55,503 nt of DNA. Source: an uncultured archaeon. GTDB taxonomy: Archaea > Asgardarchaeota > Lokiarchaeia > Sigyniarchaeales > SOKP01. The stretch spans positions 1 through 55,503 of the forward strand of contig CAZWEM010000028.1 of NCBI GenBank assembly GCA_964632315.1, in the 5' to 3' direction. This document shows positions 8,556-50,686 of this stretch, piece by piece (within the stretch, counting starts at the first letter, position 1; each line of letters opens with the position of its first letter). The position numbers and the translations under genes were made by a program. A model generated the notes under the pieces. That model did no database searches. It was given only the letters and a program-made list of their open reading frames with translations, and was not told the origin of the DNA.

Positions 8556-8780
8556 TTAGGTTTTTTTCACTAAGATGTGCTTGGATGCGTTAATGACCTC
8601 TAATTTTGGAAGCCCTTGTATCTTTTTAATTAAATTCACTTGATTCTTCACGGTAATCCAGTTGGAACTTGCCATGGCTGAAACTTCACTGATCGTATGA
8701 AATTTTCCATCTTCTAAAGCATTATATATACTCTCTATAATCTCCCAGGTTGTTTTTCTCGTGGATTGGGTTTCAGTGAT
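8556..8780 (-). CDS. Small winged-helix DNA-binding protein (74 aa, ATC start), absent from the ORF track
   Basis: (I)TETQSTRKTTWEIIESIYNALEDGKFHTISEVSAMASSNWITVKNQVNLIKKIQGLPKLEVINASKHILVKKT*; GGTGA SD 6 nt upstream; HTH-like TISEVS..SSNWITVK. Confidence 0.65.
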   Translation of the reverse strand: MTETQSTRKTTWEIIESIYNALEDGKFHTISEVSAMASSNWITVKNQVNLIKKIQGLPKLEVINASKHILVKKT

Positions 8781-8949
8781 CTCTCTTCACCATCAAATTT
8801 ATTTCAAAAAAATCAAAAATAACATCTACTATCTAAGTATTATATATAAACCTATATAAATAGTTACTTTTAGTCATAATTGTATAACAAACAGCATTTT
8901 TTTTATAACAATAGATGAGTTTTATAACTCAAAATTATATTTAAAGGAT

Positions 8950-9130: not shown

Positions 9131-10870
9131 ATGATTAAGAATGATAATAATGGCTTCAAAACCCTAAAAGGAAAGATCATATTGACAGCGAGTATTGGAC
9201 AATGCGTTCATGTTGCGGGAGCATATAATTTCATGAATATTGCGAGCCAATTAGGGTTTAAATGCATCTTTTTAGGCCCCGCTACTCCAAATTCCATTAT
9301 AATAGAAAAGATAAGAAGCATTAAGCCAAATATAGTGGGGTTTAGTTATAGGCTTACTCCGTCTACATTAAAACCTATTCTTAGGAAATTTAAAAAAAAA
9401 TATATCAATGTAGATGAAAAACCTCAACGCTTATTTTTTGCGGGTACTCCTCAAAATGTAGAAATAGCGAAAGAATTTGATCTCTTTGATGAATATTTTG
9501 TAGGAGGGGAGTCAAAATATAAAATTATATCAATTTTAAGGCGTGAAAGGTCTGATTCAGAAAAAATAATTAAAATTCCAATAGAATTGATTCCACGGAT
9601 TAAATGGAAAAAACCTTATCCTATCATAAGAGCTCATTTTGGTTTGGAAAATCTCGAGGAAACTTTAAACGGAATAAAGAAATTAGCGAACGCAGAAGTT
9701 TTAGATATCATCTCAATTGCACCAGATCAAAACACGCAAGCTAATTTTTTCCATCCAGAGGACCAAGATGATGGCCTTTCAGGGGCAGGAGGAGTTCCAA
9801 TAAGATCCAGAGAAGATTTATTAAAGATTCATCAAGCAAGATTTACTGGAAATAATCCATTATTAAGAATTTATGCCGGAACTCGTGATTTTATAAAACT
9901 AGGAAAACTTTTTAGAGAGACAATCCAAAATGCTTGGGCGGCTATTCCGATATTTTGGTTTAATCAAATGGATGGTCGGGGCCCTTTAAGTTTAAAAGAG
10001 TCAATAAAACAGCATCTGGAAGCCATTAAATGGCATGCTGAGAACAAGATTCCTGTTGAGATCAATGATCCTCATCATTGGAGTTTAAGAAATGCTCCAG
10101 ATGCTATTGCAGTGGCGGATATGTATTTAAGCGGAATAATTGCGAAAAAACTAGGAGTAAAACATTTTATTGCCCAATACATGTTTAATACGCCACCAGG
10201 AAGTTCGTTTGATATGGATTTAGCAAAAATTATGGCAAAAGATGAGTTGCTTCATACTCTGATCGATGATAAATTTTCAGTAATTCGGCAGGTTCGTGCG
10301 GGATTAGTTAGTTTTCCACTCAATCTCAATAGAGCTAAAGGACAATTAGCTGCTGCAACGATGGTTCAATTAGCGATAAAGCCAGATATTATTCATATTG
10401 TTAGTTTCAGCGAAGCAGATCATGCTGCTAACCCAGAAGATATCATAGAAAGTTGTAATATAGTTGAACAAGTTGTAAATAAGGTATATGAAAGTAATCT
10501 AAATGTCATTAATGACAAAATTAATGAAAGAAAAGAAGAATTGATAAAACAAGCTAAATGGATCATAGATTTGGTTCCACATTTAGCTAAAAATAGAGAG
10601 GAAAGAGAGAATCCTTGGAGAGATTATAACGTATTGCATAGACTAGTTAAATTTGGTATTTTTGATGCCCCTCATCTTAAAAATAACAAATATGCTCTCG
10701 GAAAAATTATAACAAAAGTGATTAACGGAGGATGTTATTCTTGGGATCTTATCCGTAATAAAAAATTGGATGAAATTGAAAGGATCAAGACGATAATAGA
10801 TGAAAATGCCAGCTTTATGGATTTTGATATAAAAGCTAAAACAAGTCCAAAAGAGGTGAAAATAAAATGA
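9131..10870 (+). CDS. Cobalamin-dependent protein: N-terminal B12-binding domain fused to a glutamate-mutase-E-like barrel
   Basis: GQCVHVAG (DxHxxG variant), FLGP, VGFSYRL, FFAG; the C-terminal AKKLGVKHF..DLAK..SFP..AATMV..SEA pattern recalls glutamate mutase E. Confidence 0.75.
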   Translation: MIKNDNNGFKTLKGKIILTASIGQCVHVAGAYNFMNIASQLGFKCIFLGPATPNSIIIEKIRSIKPNIVGFSYRLTPSTLKPILRKFKKKYINVDEKPQRLFFAGTPQNVEIAKEFDLFDEYFVGGESKYKIISILRRERSDSEKIIKIPIELIPRIKWKKPYPIIRAHFGLENLEETLNGIKKLANAEVLDIISIAPDQNTQANFFHPEDQDDGLSGAGGVPIRSREDLLKIHQARFTGNNPLLRIYAGTRDFIKLGKLFRETIQNAWAAIPIFWFNQMDGRGPLSLKESIKQHLEAIKWHAENKIPVEINDPHHWSLRNAPDAIAVADMYLSGIIAKKLGVKHFIAQYMFNTPPGSSFDMDLAKIMAKDELLHTLIDDKFSVIRQVRAGLVSFPLNLNRAKGQLAAATMVQLAIKPDIIHIVSFSEADHAANPEDIIESCNIVEQVVNKVYESNLNVINDKINERKEELIKQAKWIIDLVPHLAKNREERENPWRDYNVLHRLVKFGIFDAPHLKNNKYALGKIITKVINGGCYSWDLIRNKKLDEIERIKTIIDENASFMDFDIKAKTSPKEVKIK

Positions 10871-12770: not shown

Positions 12771-13284
12771 AACACCATCACTTCAGCATAACTTATTTTT
12801 AAAGATTGGGTTGTATACCTATAAATTGTGTATATATAGATTCCATGATTATTAAACTTCTTTTAATCTTTTCTTCACATATCCCTATTTAGGTGATCTT
12901 TCCTTTATTTTGTGAATTTTTTATCCACCAAATTTATGAGATTTTGTATTTTTTTTAATTTGGGTCTTATTATACCCTCTGGTAATAAATTTTTGACTGA
13001 TTAAGCTCCTATTATTCTCATACTTCGCCTTTTTTTAAAAAAAATGATTTAATTTAACAAATATTAGCCCGGCTTAGTCACATAAGTTTTAGGTATAGAA
13101 ATTGATTGGAAATGTTTTTCTCTTTTTAAAATCAGAAGATTTAAATAAGTTATGCGATAGAGTATAGTGAGATTTTAGTTGAATCATTGGAAGGGCTATA
13201 TATTACTATTTTATTCTTTTTAAGCCTTCGTGTTAGCTAAAATTAAAAAAAATTATTTTATTATTTAAAAGAGGTGATTAAGAA

Positions 13285-13488
13285 ATTCCTGGGTCTCACG
13301 GTTCAATGACTAAAGCAGGAAAGGTTAGGCAACAAACTCCAAGGGTGGAATCAACAGGAGTTAATTCTGTTAAAAAAAGAATACCTAGAAAAAGATTTAG
13401 GCGATTGTATAAAAAAAGAATCGTGAATGAAAAATTTGGGGGACAACCTGATTCTATTGGGGCAAAAAAAGCAAGATATCGCTCCTAA
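13285..13488 (+). CDS. rps30e: Ribosomal protein eS30 (ATT start)
   Basis: (I)PGSHGSMTKAGKVRQQTPRV; the conserved SHGS lies upstream of the first ATG (13306); GAGGTGA SD at 13271-13277. Confidence 0.92.
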   Translation: MPGSHGSMTKAGKVRQQTPRVESTGVNSVKKRIPRKRFRRLYKKRIVNEKFGGQPDSIGAKKARYRS

Positions 13489-13535
13489 TTCAAGAATTGA
13501 TATTCATTAATAAGAAATATGGAGGTGAAGTAAAA

Positions 13536-14042
13536 ATTTACAGTAAAATATTGATAGCGATGGATGATTCAAATGATGCTTTCAAAGCAGCGAAACGAGT
13601 AATTGAAATGGTTAAAAATGGAAAGGGGGCAAATGAAGATGAAAATAGCAAAATTACCACCAAAGTAGTTGCTTTTCATTCAATTATGCATAATGCATTC
13701 TCACAAGGCCTAATAATTCCCATCCCTAGTCCGTTTGGTAGTTACTATATGATTCCATCGTTAGATTATCAAAAACTAGAGCAAGAATATCGAGAACACG
13801 GTAAACGTATATTAAGCAAAGTAAAAGAAATGTTTGATAAAGAAAATTTACCAATTGAAACTCGACTTATCGTTGATCACACACCTGCCGAATATATCTC
13901 AAAGGTTAAAAAAGAAGAAAATTTTGATTTAGTTGCTCTGGGATGTAAAGGAGAACATTCAAGAGTGGAAGAATTACTCATAGGAAATGTTGCATTTGAA
14001 ATTCTAAACAACGTCGATACTGATTTATTGATTGTTCGATAA
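13536..14042 (+). CDS. Universal stress protein (probable ATT start)
   Basis: (I)YSKILIAMDDS...FDLVALGCKG...LLIGNVAFEIL...DLLIVR; GGAGGTGA SD at 13521-13528. Confidence 0.9.
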   Translation: MYSKILIAMDDSNDAFKAAKRVIEMVKNGKGANEDENSKITTKVVAFHSIMHNAFSQGLIIPIPSPFGSYYMIPSLDYQKLEQEYREHGKRILSKVKEMFDKENLPIETRLIVDHTPAEYISKVKKEENFDLVALGCKGEHSRVEELLIGNVAFEILNNVDTDLLIVR

Positions 14043-27791: not shown

Positions 27792-28427
27792 TTAATTAGT
27801 ATTTATTAATTCTTTAATCCTTTTTAATCTTGAAAATGATTCTCTTTCATTTTCTTCTAAAACATCTTTAATTTTTTTTATATCTGTTTCAATCCCTGGA
27901 ATAATTTTGCTTTCTAAAGCATTGATTCTTCTATTTAACTTTTTTAAATCTATTCCAAATTTCATCATTAAATCTTCAAGTTCTGCCAATCTCATGATGT
28001 TTTTGATAACATTTTTTAAAGTAAATATTAAATCATCTAAATGATGAGTAGTGTTCTCAAAAGCATACGAGGGGTATTTTTCATGTTCATCAAAAATATA
28101 ATCTATTTTAGGAGTTATTAAACCTAAATTCTTAATTACTCTAATATTTATTTTGAAGTCATACTGAATTCTACTTAAGGTACTTATTAGATTAAAATAT
28201 CTCTTACCCATACCTTTATAGGTCAAATTTAATTTTCTGTAAGAGTCAATCCATAAATCGTAAAACTGAGTTTTTAATGAAATATATTCATTCCAATAAT
28301 TATCTATATAAAATAACAATTGTTCCCGTTTGATATTTAATAAATCCTTCCCTTTAATCGCAAATTTTAATTTTTTTTGTAAACTAATTAAATTCGATTT
28401 TGTAGGTTTAACTTCTCTAAAGCTAAT
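27792..28427 (-). CDS. atpD: A/V-type ATP synthase subunit D (ATT start, 211 aa)
   Basis: (I)SFREVKPTKSNLISLQKKLKFAIKGKDLLNIKREQL...RRINALE..IIP...LEENERESFSRLK. Confidence 0.9.
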   Translation of the reverse strand: MSFREVKPTKSNLISLQKKLKFAIKGKDLLNIKREQLLFYIDNYWNEYISLKTQFYDLWIDSYRKLNLTYKGMGKRYFNLISTLSRIQYDFKINIRVIKNLGLITPKIDYIFDEHEKYPSYAFENTTHHLDDLIFTLKNVIKNIMRLAELEDLMMKFGIDLKKLNRRINALESKIIPGIETDIKKIKDVLEENERESFSRLKRIKELINTN

Positions 28428-28433
28428 TAAGTA

Positions 28434-29819
28434 TCACCCAATATAATATTCTTTAACAAATTTATCATGAATTCTATAAAGATTTTCTTTTGGAATATTT
28501 GCTAGCACCTTCCAAGCAATATTTAAAGTCTCTTCAAAACTTCGGTTCTCTGTTTCTTCTTGATTTATGAAATTGGCTTCAAATTCTCGATTAAAATTCA
28601 ATAATGATTTTTGATATTGATTTAAACTATCTTCTCCAACTATAGAGATTAATTCTTTTACATCTAGGGATTCAGAATAAGATGCTAGTAATTGTGATGC
28701 AACATCGGCATGATCTGCCCTTGTTGTTTCTGCCCCTATAGCATCCTTCATTAACCGTGATAATGAGGCTAATAATTCAATAGGAGGATAGATTCCGCTT
28801 TTATGCATACTTCTATTTAATACAATTTGACCTTCTGTGATGTAACCTGAAGTATCAGCAATCGGATGAGTTATATCATCATTTGGCATTGTAAGAATTG
28901 GAATTTGGGTTATTGATCCTTTTTTTCCCTTAATTTTACCCGTGCGTTCATATATAGAAGCTAAATCAGAATATAAATATCCTGGATACCCTTTTCTACT
29001 TGGAATTTCTTCTCGAGCAGAACTTAATTCTCTTAAAGCTTCCGCATAATTTGTCATATTAATCAAAATAATTAATACGTGCATATCTTTTTCGAAAGCA
29101 AAATATTCTGCAGTTGTGAGAGCAACTCTAGGAATTAAGAGTCGCTCCATAACGGGATCATCAATAAAATTGAAAAAAGAAATGATATTATTTATATTAC
29201 CGCTTTCTTTAAATTTATCTAAAAAGAATACAGCTTCATCTTGTAGTAAACCAATCCCGCAAAAAATCACTAAAAATGGTTCATTAGTCAAAACTTTCGC
29301 TTGAGTTACTATTTGTGCAGCCAGATTATTATGAGATAACCCTTGTCCACTAAAAATAGGTAGTTTTTGTCCTCGAATCAGTGTATTTAATCCATCGATT
29401 ACAGAGATCCCAGTTTGAATAATTTCTGTAGGATATTCTCGAGCAAATGGATTAATTGGGCTTCCATTAATTTCTCGTTCAACCCCTGAAATTATATCTG
29501 ATTCTAATGCTTTTTTGGTGTATATATTAATTGGTTTTCCTAACGAGTTAAATGTGCCCCCCATCATATCTTTAGATAGCTTTACTTTAAATAAATCTCC
29601 TGTAAAAGCAATATCTGAGTTTTCTGAAGAGATACCTGTGGTATCTTGAAAAACCTCGAGAACTATTACTTCTTCATCCATCCTTATAATTTGTCCGTTT
29701 CTTTCTTCTCCATCATTAGTAATGATCTTAACAAATTCTCCAAACTGAACATCATGATTATTCTTTAAAAATAATAGAGACCCAATTATCTGATTAATTT
29801 TATTATATGTTACACTCAT
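28434..29819 (-). CDS. atpB: A/V-type ATP synthase subunit B
   Basis: GQKLPIFSG, GYPGYLYSDLASIYER, MPNDDITHP, TEGQI, SLSRLM. Confidence 0.96.
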   Translation of the reverse strand: MSVTYNKINQIIGSLLFLKNNHDVQFGEFVKIITNDGEERNGQIIRMDEEVIVLEVFQDTTGISSENSDIAFTGDLFKVKLSKDMMGGTFNSLGKPINIYTKKALESDIISGVEREINGSPINPFAREYPTEIIQTGISVIDGLNTLIRGQKLPIFSGQGLSHNNLAAQIVTQAKVLTNEPFLVIFCGIGLLQDEAVFFLDKFKESGNINNIISFFNFIDDPVMERLLIPRVALTTAEYFAFEKDMHVLIILINMTNYAEALRELSSAREEIPSRKGYPGYLYSDLASIYERTGKIKGKKGSITQIPILTMPNDDITHPIADTSGYITEGQIVLNRSMHKSGIYPPIELLASLSRLMKDAIGAETTRADHADVASQLLASYSESLDVKELISIVGEDSLNQYQKSLLNFNREFEANFINQEETENRSFEETLNIAWKVLANIPKENLYRIHDKFVKEYYIG

Positions 29820-29822
29820 TGT

Positions 29823-33042: not shown

Positions 33043-34092
33043 TTATAAAGTTTGATATTTGAGATTTATTATATTGACGACTAAAGGAATTAAAACATAT
33101 TTGATCTCAGATTCCTTTTTAACTAATAACTCTAAGACTTTACTCGCCGTTAGTGCAGATAAACTTGAAATTTGCTTATGACATTCCTTAAAAAAATATT
33201 CATCATAAACACCTTTTAATATAGCGATGATATCTTCAGTACTTTTATTAAAAACATCTGGTGGAAAAAGTCTTGGTTTAGATTCCGTTAAAAAGGAGAT
33301 TAATGATTGATTAAATCCTTCAACCGTTTCTTGATTCAGTAAAATATTTAATTTTTTTGAATTTAAGAATAAATAACTATTTATAATCAATTGCGATAAT
33401 AAATTTTTTTCAATATTATTTTTAATCCCCCGATAAAGAATTTTGACATTATAGATTTCAACCACATAATTAATGTATATTCTCATTATCTCGAAATCCG
33501 ATTTACTAAATCTAGATTTTATTCTACTTAAAATTTCATAGTATAATTTATCAAGGGAAACCGCCAAGAAAAAAATTTCTTGATTTCTCTTATAAAAATC
33601 CAATCCTTCCTTTATAACTTGATAATAGTTTGTCTTTTTCATAAATAACTGAATTTCGTTGATAGTGCGTTTATTTATGAGTTCCCGGATAAAATCCTCA
33701 TTATCAAGTAATTCTTCAATTATAAAATTAGTATCATTTAATTTTTCTTTTTTAGTTCTATTAAGGATCGTTCCAAGTATTATATTCTTTATATTGTATA
33801 TCTCGTACTTCATTAAAAAATATTTTAAAAATTGTCTTAATTCATCTGGTGAATTTACAAGAATTCTCCCAATTAATTTAAAAAAACTATGATACAGAGA
33901 TTTTTCGATTTCCGAAATTGATAGCATTTTAAAAGAAGTATCAGGATAATATGGTTTTATGAATTCGATAAGTTCATCTATAGATTTGATGTTTTTTGCA
34001 CTATTAATATCTGACTCAGTTAACACAATTTGTTTTAAAATAGCCAACTTTACATATAAATAACCATAATCTGGTACAATAACACCACTCAT
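33043..34092 (-). CDS. atpC: A/V-type ATP synthase subunit C (d)
   Basis: DYGYLYVK, KYEIYNIKNII, LDKLYY, EIYNVKILYRG. Confidence 0.8.
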   Translation of the reverse strand: MSGVIVPDYGYLYVKLAILKQIVLTESDINSAKNIKSIDELIEFIKPYYPDTSFKMLSISEIEKSLYHSFFKLIGRILVNSPDELRQFLKYFLMKYEIYNIKNIILGTILNRTKKEKLNDTNFIIEELLDNEDFIRELINKRTINEIQLFMKKTNYYQVIKEGLDFYKRNQEIFFLAVSLDKLYYEILSRIKSRFSKSDFEIMRIYINYVVEIYNVKILYRGIKNNIEKNLLSQLIINSYLFLNSKKLNILLNQETVEGFNQSLISFLTESKPRLFPPDVFNKSTEDIIAILKGVYDEYFFKECHKQISSLSALTASKVLELLVKKESEIKYVLIPLVVNIINLKYQTL

Positions 34093-34128
34093 TAGAATTT
34101 CACCAGATAAAAAAATAGTTTATGCTAT

Positions 34129-49216: not shown

Positions 49217-50389
49217 TTACGTTTCATTTAAAACTATTAACCGTACCAATTCTTCAAACATCATTTCTATATTCTTACCTGTATTCACATTACATTCAAG
49301 ATATCCATCTATCCCACTAACTTCCACTAATTTAATTGCTTCTTCACGTGGGACTTTTCGATTCTCTTTTTCTCCACTTGCAAGCCCTACCATAATAATT
49401 GGAAAATAGGAACTCTGTCTTAATCCCTTTCTAATTAATTGTAACCATTCATCAAAACATTGAAAGGAAGAATAGTCATTAACATCATATATGAAAAGCC
49501 CACCAAGAGAACCTCGGACATATGTAGGGACAAGATAATTCTTTTTTGCTTCTTGTTTACCTATAAAATCCCAAATTTGTATTTTATATGACACCCCTTC
49601 AATTAAAACATATTTGGTTTTAAAATTAACACCAATATTCATTTTTGCATCAGAAATGATTTTGTTTGAGTAAAAATTCCTCGATAACTTATTCCATTTC
49701 TGAACATCTGGTTCACCAAACACTACAATTTTAAACATACCATATTTCCCATCCAAAGCCTTCTTACTAAATTTTTTTCTAAGAATTTTTTCATTCTGTG
49801 GTTGCATAACCTTAAGTGAAGTAATTGGATGACAATCAATGGAATCATCGTTCACCATTCTTTTAAGAAGATCTGTAAAAGCATCATCAACATTGATCCC
49901 CTCTCTTGATGAGATTTCATGGGAAAATGAAATATTAAATTTTTCTTTCAAATATTCAATATCATCCTTAAAAATATGTCGATGACTTATTAAATCCACT
50001 TTATTTCCAAGTAGCAGGGTGGGAATCCTCATTTTTTCTTCACGAAGCTGGTCAACTATTTCAGGAATAATTCTCAAGCTTTTAGGTTCTGTAAGGTCAT
50101 AAAAAAAAATTATGGCATTAGCACCTTTTAGGTACTCTTTTTTCATAACTTTATATTTTTCTTTATTAGGTAATTGCCAAATTTGCATTTTAAAAGACTT
50201 ATCATTACAAGAGAATTCTTTTAAATAAAACTGAACACCAGGATTGAGAATTGACTCTCCAGAAGAAATTTTCTTAGTGAAATTGTTTAAGAGTGTTGAG
50301 AGCCCAGCTCCATCATCTCCTACAATTAGGACCTTAAAGAATATCCCATGTATCGCATTATATACATTGAGGTGATTAATTAGTATCAC
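49217..50389 (-). CDS. Tandem double Rab-like small GTPase-domain protein, degenerate
   Basis: FKVLIVGD...MQIW...LLGNKVD, then FKIVVFG...KIQIWDF...YVRGSLGGLFIYDV. Confidence 0.85.
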   Translation of the reverse strand: MILINHLNVYNAIHGIFFKVLIVGDDGAGLSTLLNNFTKKISSGESILNPGVQFYLKEFSCNDKSFKMQIWQLPNKEKYKVMKKEYLKGANAIIFFYDLTEPKSLRIIPEIVDQLREEKMRIPTLLLGNKVDLISHRHIFKDDIEYLKEKFNISFSHEISSREGINVDDAFTDLLKRMVNDDSIDCHPITSLKVMQPQNEKILRKKFSKKALDGKYGMFKIVVFGEPDVQKWNKLSRNFYSNKIISDAKMNIGVNFKTKYVLIEGVSYKIQIWDFIGKQEAKKNYLVPTYVRGSLGGLFIYDVNDYSSFQCFDEWLQLIRKGLRQSSYFPIIMVGLASGEKENRKVPREEAIKLVEVSGIDGYLECNVNTGKNIEMMFEELVRLIVLNET

Positions 50390-50686
50390 TTTTTAGATAG
50401 GGATCTTTTCATAATTTTTAGGACAATATTCGTTTAAATATTTTTTTCATCATTATCCCATCAAATTTTTATTATGGAATATGAAATGTGAGTTGATAAG
50501 ATAAAAATACTAAAAAATAGTGAAACCATTGTATAGTATTTATTTGAACAATCTATATAAAATCGGGATAAAACTTAAACATTTTTTATATTTATAAATT
50601 TGGACAAAATAGTACGGTATACTCGTTAAAAAGCTGTTCTGATAAGGTTTTAAATTTAAAAAAAAATAAAAAAATCACTAAATTTC

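Follow-up and report, generated by a model that had tools for sequence, protein, structure and literature searches.

ATT, ATC and ATA are listed as initiators in NCBI translation table 11. The archaeal start codons described so far are AUG, GUG and UUG, and in Sulfolobus the initiation factor aIF1 rejects AUU in vitro (PMC4705826, PMC6237735, PMC12993045). The Sulfolobus 30S complex binds an AUU mRNA when aIF1 is absent, not when it is present (PMC4705826). Bacterial infC is autoregulated via its AUU start and eIF1 via a poor start context (PMC4705826). Our literature search returned no paper that reports AUH starts in Asgard archaea. The stretch of DNA analysed here, called the window in the following, comprises 55,503 nucleotides and is one contig (C28) of a lokiarchaeial assembly (G000; GCA_964632315.1) of 4.45 Mb, 33% GC and 119 contigs. 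In this window we found four intact genes that are, in our reading very probably, translated from AUU (eS30, atpD and a universal stress protein gene, USP) or from AUC (a small winged-helix-like gene). All four N-termini are inferred, without protein or RNA evidence.

The eS30 gene lies on the plus strand. Its Shine-Dalgarno (SD) motif GAGGTGA (13271-13277), which matches the archaeal anti-SD complement GGAGGTGAT, is followed by the 7-nt spacer ttaagaa and then by the proposed start codon ATT (13285-13287), from where the frame reads ATT CCT GGG TCT CAC GGT TCA ATG. The ATG at the end of this run (13306-13308) is the start chosen by the public annotation. An in-frame TAA is located at 13279-13281, and between it and this ATG there is no ATG, GTG or TTG. 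Starting from the ATT, the coding sequence (13285-13488) gives a protein of 67 amino acids, which matches Pfam PF04758 (E = 1.5e-10; 41.5 bits, cut-off 27) with profile positions 3-48 on residues 5-52. We aligned the stop-to-stop frames of 30 eS30 loci from 29 genomes of the same order, all of which share the N-terminus (M)PGSHGS[LM]TKAGKV. The ATT of the window aligns to the ATG of MPGSHGS in its orthologues: at this one position, 23 of the 30 loci carry ATG and seven, the window included, carry ATT. The window protein possesses the conserved N-terminus only if it is translated from ATT 13285. In two of the ATT loci (L008 and L012) the next leucine is encoded by TTA, not TTG, and the first canonical codon appears at residue 25 or later. 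In five other genomes, the sole eS30 copy that was found carries the ATT. The seven codons from ATT to ATG differ from those of the closest copy by three synonymous and zero nonsynonymous changes. The whole gene differs from the copy in GCA_004524705 by 24 synonymous and 5 nonsynonymous codons, showing that eS30 is under purifying selection. For this syntenic MAG copy NCBI starts eS30 at an ATT behind GGTGA (TFG23141.1), so the pipeline is occasionally right. We hold it to be highly probable that eS30 is translated from ATT 13285, with the N-terminus inferred.

A second eS30 paralogue is present in the genome (G000:C3:68895-69089). It has an ATG start and a weak SD, and is 68% identical to the window copy. 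Both paralogues are likewise found in G007, where the extra eS30, a USP and a second aIF1 are located inside 5 kb on contig C23. On G005:C60 the winged-helix gene, a second aIF1 and a USP stand together; the window itself is without aIF1. The duplicated translation genes may form a small island in such neighbourhoods.

The initial annotation had described the eS30 geometry, had claimed that it recurs at the other three genes and at canonical genes of the window, and had argued that a start at the first ATG would strip eS30 of its HGS. Every coordinate that it gave could be confirmed. At atpD, USP and the winged-helix gene we read spacers of 6-7 nt followed by ATT, ATT and ATC. The two canonical comparators indeed have 7 nt between GGTGA and ATG, one on the plus strand (10855-10869; GGTGA 10855-10859, ATG 10867) and one on the minus strand (34090-34104; GGTGA 34104-34100, ATG 34092), and the public eS30 product of 60 amino acids lacks PGSHGS.

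The gene for the A-type ATP synthase subunit D (27792-28427, minus strand; Pfam PF01813) has its ATT at 28427-28425. Its SD GGGTGA (28434-28439) includes a GGTGA (28438-28434) that stands 6 nt ahead of the ATT, and the TGA of this motif (28436-28434) is in frame with atpD. Directly upstream are frames of 605 and 462 codons, which we read as atpA and atpB by position only (no family search); the frame 28434-29822, atpB by position, ends with this TGA inside the atpD SD and in the same frame as atpD. In many atpD orthologues, GGTG is followed by an in-frame TAA ahead of the ATT, instead of a stop within the SD. The next canonical codon of the window gene is a TTG, 36 codons downstream at residue 37. 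The full-length PF01813 match (E = 4.8e-40) places profile positions 1-196 on residues 12-206 of the ATT-initiated protein, so that a start at the TTG would lose 25 profile positions. Aligned over 30 loci, the first codon reads ATT 13 times, ATA three times, ATG six times, TTG twice and GTG once, with five unclear cases. Across the 36 codons of the extension, the window and G010 differ by 10 synonymous and 3 nonsynonymous changes. Translation of AtpD from ATT 28427, again with an inferred N-terminus, appears to us as firmly supported as that of eS30.

Because the atpD SD overlaps the atpB stop codon in the same frame, an arrangement that looks like translational coupling, termination-coupled reinitiation may contribute at atpD, besides the effect of the SD. 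A more radical reading would be that initiation is independent of the start codon altogether: terminating ribosomes resume translation a few bases downstream, and the ATT itself is not selected. The in-frame atpB stop, 6 nt before the ATT, speaks for this reading. However, the aligned atpD codon is ATT, ATA, ATG, TTG or GTG in 25 of the 30 loci, which is a set resembling start codons and not an arbitrary one. Moreover, coupling cannot explain eS30, because no upstream ORF ends near its SD. We thereby leave start-codon-independent reinitiation only a small chance, and continue with the reading that the AUU or AUC is itself selected.

The USP gene (13536-14042, plus strand; Pfam PF00582) starts with ATT 13536-13538 and possesses the SD GGAGGTGA (13521-13528), an 8-nt match with a 7-nt spacer. 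The PF00582 match has E = 7.6e-15, and its best stretch covers only profile positions 43-141. An N-terminal strand [MI]Y.KIL..(D) is common to 29 relatives. Among 30 orthologues and paralogues, the aligned first codon is near-cognate in 15 (ATT 12, ATA 2, CTG 1) and canonical in 15 (ATG 10, GTG 3, TTG 2), and several of the ATT-start copies are without a canonical codon for 19-32 codons. The syntenic copy in L146 has ATG at the codon where the window has ATT. In GCA_004524705, the USP next to eS30 carries ATG there. From the ATT up to the first canonical codon, 4 synonymous differences stand beside 1 nonsynonymous one. The alternatives in the window are a TTG 5 codons and an ATG (13560) 8 codons downstream of the ATT. 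Since the TTG lies inside the first strand, USP is the weaker case when it comes to the absence of any available canonical start. That USP is translated from ATT 13536 we nevertheless judge to be quite probable, the N-terminus being inferred here as well.

For the small winged-helix-like gene of 74 amino acids (8556-8780, minus strand), the putative start is ATC 8780-8778, which lies 6 nt behind the SD GGTGA (8787-8791), whose TGA is in frame. The next canonical start is an ATG 35 codons downstream, and over these 35 codons 13 synonymous stand beside 10 nonsynonymous codon differences. The search for orthologues yielded only four, of which the closest (G022) carries ATT in this place, 6 nt after GGTGA, and the other three are ambiguous. 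A Pfam scan of the product gave zero matches, and for this reason the winged-helix gene is the weakest and least secure of the four cases. Translation from ATC 8780, with its inferred N-terminus, is what we favour with moderate confidence. In one winged-helix orthologue (L143, G012) the entire frame of 76 codons is without a canonical start, and TTC is found at the aligned start. At three GPN GTPase loci (L193, L195 and L199 in G021, G017 and G009) the aligned codon is TTT, and an ATT stands two codons upstream, about 2 nt after GAGGT. These four starts fall outside the 6-7-nt rule. A frame of 391 codons in the window (49217-50392, minus strand) opens with AAA GTG ATT TTA ATT, which allows two readings: a start at the GTG, or an SD GTGAT that serves the ATT 5 nt further on and could make this frame a fifth case in the window.

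According to the public annotation, translation would begin at the first downstream ATG or TTG, and the in-frame codons upstream of it would be untranslated leader. The NCBI and JGI/IMG collections do hold, for this contig, exactly the eS30 of 60 amino acids starting MTKAGKV and a USP of 160 amino acids from ATG 13560, and the TTG and ATG shortly past the USP ATT make such a start conceivable there. Yet the codons upstream of the canonical starts evolve mostly synonymously, and they align to the conserved N-termini of orthologues that have their ATG exactly at the upstream position. The strong SD stands 6-7 nt ahead of the ATT, not of the ATG; the downstream start would cost atpD the 25 profile positions mentioned above; and two eS30 orthologues are without a canonical codon before residue 25. 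We therefore consider it very improbable that the public starts are correct. The two shortened entries rather bear out the expectation of the initial annotation that pipelines truncate such genes: in the public entries for the window, eS30 is without its conserved N-terminus and USP without its first strand.

The near-cognate starts are not restricted to the window. In G000 we looked at ORFs with 100 or more codons whose frame opens directly behind a GGTGA with its TGA in frame, so that the third codon corresponds to a spacer of 6. The codons at this spacer were ATG 19, TTG 10, GTG 6, ATT 10, ATA 10, ATC 4 and ACG 6. ATH was thus found 24 times, versus 6 times for five other AT-rich codons, compared to a ratio of 47:121 at other in-frame positions (odds ratio 10, Fisher p = 1e-7). 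A wider analysis accepted any uninterrupted stretch of 5 nt or more that matches GGAGGTGAT, with spacers of 5-8 nt, in frames without an upstream canonical codon. It gave 93 ATT, ATA, ATC, ACG or CTG sites, where the background rate of other codons would predict about 49, an excess of about 44. With SD matches of at least 6 nt, 33 near-cognate sites were observed versus about 11 expected, beside 67 canonical starts; from these numbers it follows that about a quarter of the genes with the strongest SDs start near-cognate. At least about 44 genes are affected in the genome. These figures are lower bounds covering only genes with a strong SD, and several of the genome-wide candidates have a canonical codon within 1-7 codons as a possible alternative start. 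Cruder enrichment tests, which counted any SD-like 5-mer in the first 40 codons or all GGTGA sites, gave no ATT signal. They are swamped by GGT-GAx sites inside genes, and the signal is present only at ORF-proximal sites. A coding-potential model based on codon usage, intended for a count independent of the SD, was dropped due to its weak discrimination (+0.105 vs -0.091 nats per codon).

The set of start codons is broader than ATT and ATC: ATA serves as a start just as often as ATT, and ACG and CTG probably belong to the set too. Some ACG sites lie on high-GC contaminant contigs, and the ACG matches on five of these (C74, C80, C90, C103 and C113) were dropped as contaminant noise. In total 17 contigs of G000 (C36, C74, C80, C82, C87, C90, C98, C103, C105, C106, C108, C109, C111-C113, C115 and C117) have 49-70% GC compared to 33% for the genome; they are most likely bin contamination and yield spurious ACG and CTG "starts". 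The claim of the initial annotation that the lineage uses SD-directed AUU and AUC starts even in core genes is upheld by alignment, synonymous bias and Pfam cuts, while the codon set it named was too narrow. The genome scan that it proposed for GGTGA with a near-cognate start revealed the enrichment at spacer 6, and in the orthologue alignments that it also proposed, ATG and ATT or ATA do interchange and the orthologues do have the N-terminal extension.

In a Pfam scan of 20 further candidates from G000, at least 10 contain a domain that would be cut by the next canonical start. The cut domains begin at profile positions 1-7, inside the first 2-19 residues. Putative ATA starts were seen for URO-D (next ATG 39 codons in), for the HMA domain of a copper ATPase (the next ATG is the Met of GMTCxxC) and for ATP-grasp_2 (next canonical codon 88 codons in). 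ATC is found ahead of NifU_N, which the next canonical start would cut, and of Roadblock (47 codons in). ATT stands ahead of the TFB Zn-ribbon (73 codons in), a GPN-loop ATPase (45 codons in, P-loop lost), a Ras-like GTPase (51 codons in, P-loop lost) and TGT and TetR_N, both of which are again cut by the next canonical start. A sample that is not biased by the SD consisted of 36 ORFs with a small-GTPase P-loop, about 25 of them stand-alone; 2-3 of these roughly 25 are without a canonical start before the P-loop. Gene callers that accept only ATG, GTG and TTG cut or miss such proteins, and genome-wide the predicted proteins lose P-loops, Zn-ribbons and metal-binding sites. This truncation skews comparisons and structural studies of Asgard "eukaryotic signature" proteins, among them small GTPases, Roadblock and TFB.

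Comparison with relatives shows that the near-cognate habit is much stronger in the genus of the window than in the sister families. The main TFB orthologue has ATT in 19, ATA in three and ATC in one of its 23 loci in the genus, compared to ATG at all seven loci in other families of the order. The GPN-loop GTPase has ATT in 14, ATA in one and ATG in five loci of the genus, with three unclear, and ATG in 7/7 outside. For eS30 the genus has seven ATT and 16 ATG, the other families ATG in 7/7; for atpD the genus has 16 near-cognate codons and three ATG, with three unclear, and the other families canonical codons in 8/8. In some genes the weak start is kept genus-wide with the third base drifting among T, A and C. 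At one aligned codon, ATG, ATT and ATA interchange in eS30 (ATG and ATT), atpD, USP, TFB and the GPN-loop GTPase. Judged from these alignments, near-cognate starting is a property of the lineage, which affects dozens of genes or more in this genome, and the same genes throughout the genus.

The SD strength was compared in the families eS30, atpD and USP, with the start defined by protein alignment alone and independently of the SD. For the anti-SD we assumed the canonical archaeal sequence. The predicted duplex has a mean of -10.2 kcal/mol for 38 near-cognate orthologues versus -5.7 kcal/mol for 39 ATG orthologues, and the difference points in the same direction in all three families (Mann-Whitney p = 6e-8). 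The p-values from orthologues are overstated, since relatives are not independent. GTG and TTG orthologues also possess strong predicted SDs (-10.1). Only about 7% of the first ATGs in G000 are preceded by an SD that matches over at least 5 nt, which agrees with the reported rarity of SDs in Lokiarchaea (PMC12993045). From the duplex energies, together with these 7%, we conclude that the weak start codons sit behind unusually strong SDs.

What we observe is the position of the start, the SD with its spacing, and selection on the codons ahead of the first canonical start; how initiation proceeds there is inferred. We suppose that the strong SD:anti-SD duplex would fix the 30S subunit with the P site 6-7 nt downstream. 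The ordinary initiator Met-tRNA (CAU) would then form pairs at two of the three positions of the near-cognate codon, and the protein would still begin with Met. The weak codon would lower initiation and raise its sensitivity to proofreading, for which the stronger SD would partly compensate. The expected outcome would be full-length, Met-initiated proteins, made with reduced and probably aIF1-sensitive efficiency.

The pairing partners in this proposal are taken from general archaeal knowledge, since the 16S 3' end, the initiator tRNA and aIF1 are all absent from the assembly. The 16S 3' end was not found in G000. Neither was a Met or initiator tRNA, using ARAGORN with and without introns, Rfam RF00005 and patterns for the CAU anticodon stem-loop. 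The assembly contains only about 20-26 tRNAs, an incomplete set. Many tRNA genes of G000 have introns, for example tRNA-Ile(TAT) with an intron of 59 nt (G000:C35:150-304), and ARAGORN counts 26 tRNAs when introns are allowed for and only 11 when they are not. The bin is a MAG with 8.6% contamination, and although its completeness is rated at 99.5%, it contains neither aIF1 (SUI1) nor the 16S 3' end nor a Met tRNA.

The incomplete tRNA set and the missing initiator tRNA leave some space for a dedicated decoding, be it by an initiator-like tRNA that reads AUH, by Ile as the first residue, or by RNA processing that creates an AUG. We find this hardly credible. ACG and CTG appear enriched as well, which is easier to reconcile with one-mismatch pairing to CAU than with an initiator specific for Ile, and a spliced-in AUG has no room, because in all four genes but USP the ATT or ATC has an in-frame stop 1-2 codons ahead of it. 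That the true codon is ATG and was changed by a sequencing, assembly or binning artefact is practically ruled out even for a MAG with this contamination and its 17 high-GC contigs, because ATT or ATA recurs at the corresponding sites of many genomes that were assembled independently (7 for eS30, 16 for atpD, 23 for TFB), and the window is as low in GC as the main genome.

We come back to initiation with the ordinary tRNA and to the part that aIF1 may have in it. In G000 aIF1 was not found, neither with PF01253, nor by tblastn with the congener sequences, nor when every ORF of 40 or more amino acids was searched with a profile specific to the lineage. It was likewise not found in 6 of 24 congeners, and its gene may belong to a region that is difficult to assemble or bin. 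In 17 congeners, all 20 aIF1 copies are without ATG, GTG or TTG before the CxxC zinc knuckle, and the start is ATT. The main congener copy has AAGGTTGTGA, three codons and then the ATT, while two extra paralogues have GAGGTGA, 8 nt and ATT. In the sister family, some genera carry ATA on aIF1. In one complete genome of 4.4 Mb (L033 in G032), aIF1 has TTA where the congener G025 has TTG, and a canonical start upstream in frame is absent. For most of the aIF1 genes in 30 genomes of other Asgard families, an ATG or GTG stands 4-6 codons ahead of the knuckle. A canonical codon is lacking there in six genomes from three of these families (L208, L211-L213, L220, L223), in which ATA is found 9 nt behind AGGAGG or CTG 7 nt behind AAGGTG. 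By these predicted ATA and CTG starts, the weak start on aIF1 reaches beyond Lokiarchaeia.

The weak start of aIF1, taken together with the published results on infC, eIF1 and Sulfolobus, suggests a feedback loop like that of infC. This loop is inferred; autocontrol is not shown. The relaxed start-codon discrimination by aIF1 that the initial annotation deduced is likewise only inferred, and the ATT on the congener aIF1 is more in line with a stringency that can be tuned than with its mere loss. One may speculate further that the near-cognate starts constitute a translational regulon that is set by the aIF1 concentration, in which aIF1 is autoregulated and dozens of AUH genes are co-tuned, among them TFB, AtpD, the eS30 paralogue, small GTPases and USPs. 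This far-reaching idea remains tentative, and at present we regard it as rather unlikely. If true, a circuit for start-codon stringency already existed in the closest archaeal relatives of eukaryotes.

In summary, the closest parallel is infC of E. coli, which encodes IF3 (PMC4705826). As there, a near-cognate AUH codon stands at normal SD distance and is presumably read by the normal initiator tRNA. Weak starts of this kind would be sensitive to the fidelity factor, and in the congeners where its gene was found, aIF1, the functional analogue of IF3, itself has ATT as its predicted start. Two marks of starts of the infC and pcnB type are seen here as well: eS30, atpD and the winged-helix gene have no upstream canonical start, and the spacing equals that of canonical genes and is found above chance. 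Bacteria differ in that they have a handful of AUU-start genes per genome, compared to at least about 44 here, including eS30, AtpD, TFB and the GPN GTPase. In addition, the weak codon is kept genus-wide here (TFB 23/23), the factors are aIF1 and aIF2, not IF3, and autoregulation has not been shown. Near-cognate initiation in eukaryotes (CUG, ACG, AUU and others) uses the same set of one-mismatch codons, aIF1 is homologous to eIF1, and the proofreader's gene has a weak start in both (PMC4705826). In contrast to eukaryotes, scanning and Kozak context are absent here and positioning relies on the SD at 6-7 nt. Furthermore, eukaryotic near-cognate starts mostly belong to uORFs or N-terminal extensions and are not, as here, the sole start of core genes. 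Archaeal initiation as described so far shares the SD consensus GGAGGTGAT and the factor set; AUU, AUA and AUC as regular starts are not part of it. AUH codons on essential genes, genus-deep and behind stronger SDs, offer a natural system for the trade-off between SD strength and aIF1 proofreading. The weak aIF1 start parallels the autoregulation of eIF1 and IF3, and the origin of start-codon stringency control thereby becomes testable. Compared with the infC-like AUU starts of bacteria, what stands out in the starts described here is their scale, their conservation, their use on essential genes and their presence in the closest archaeal relatives of eukaryotes.
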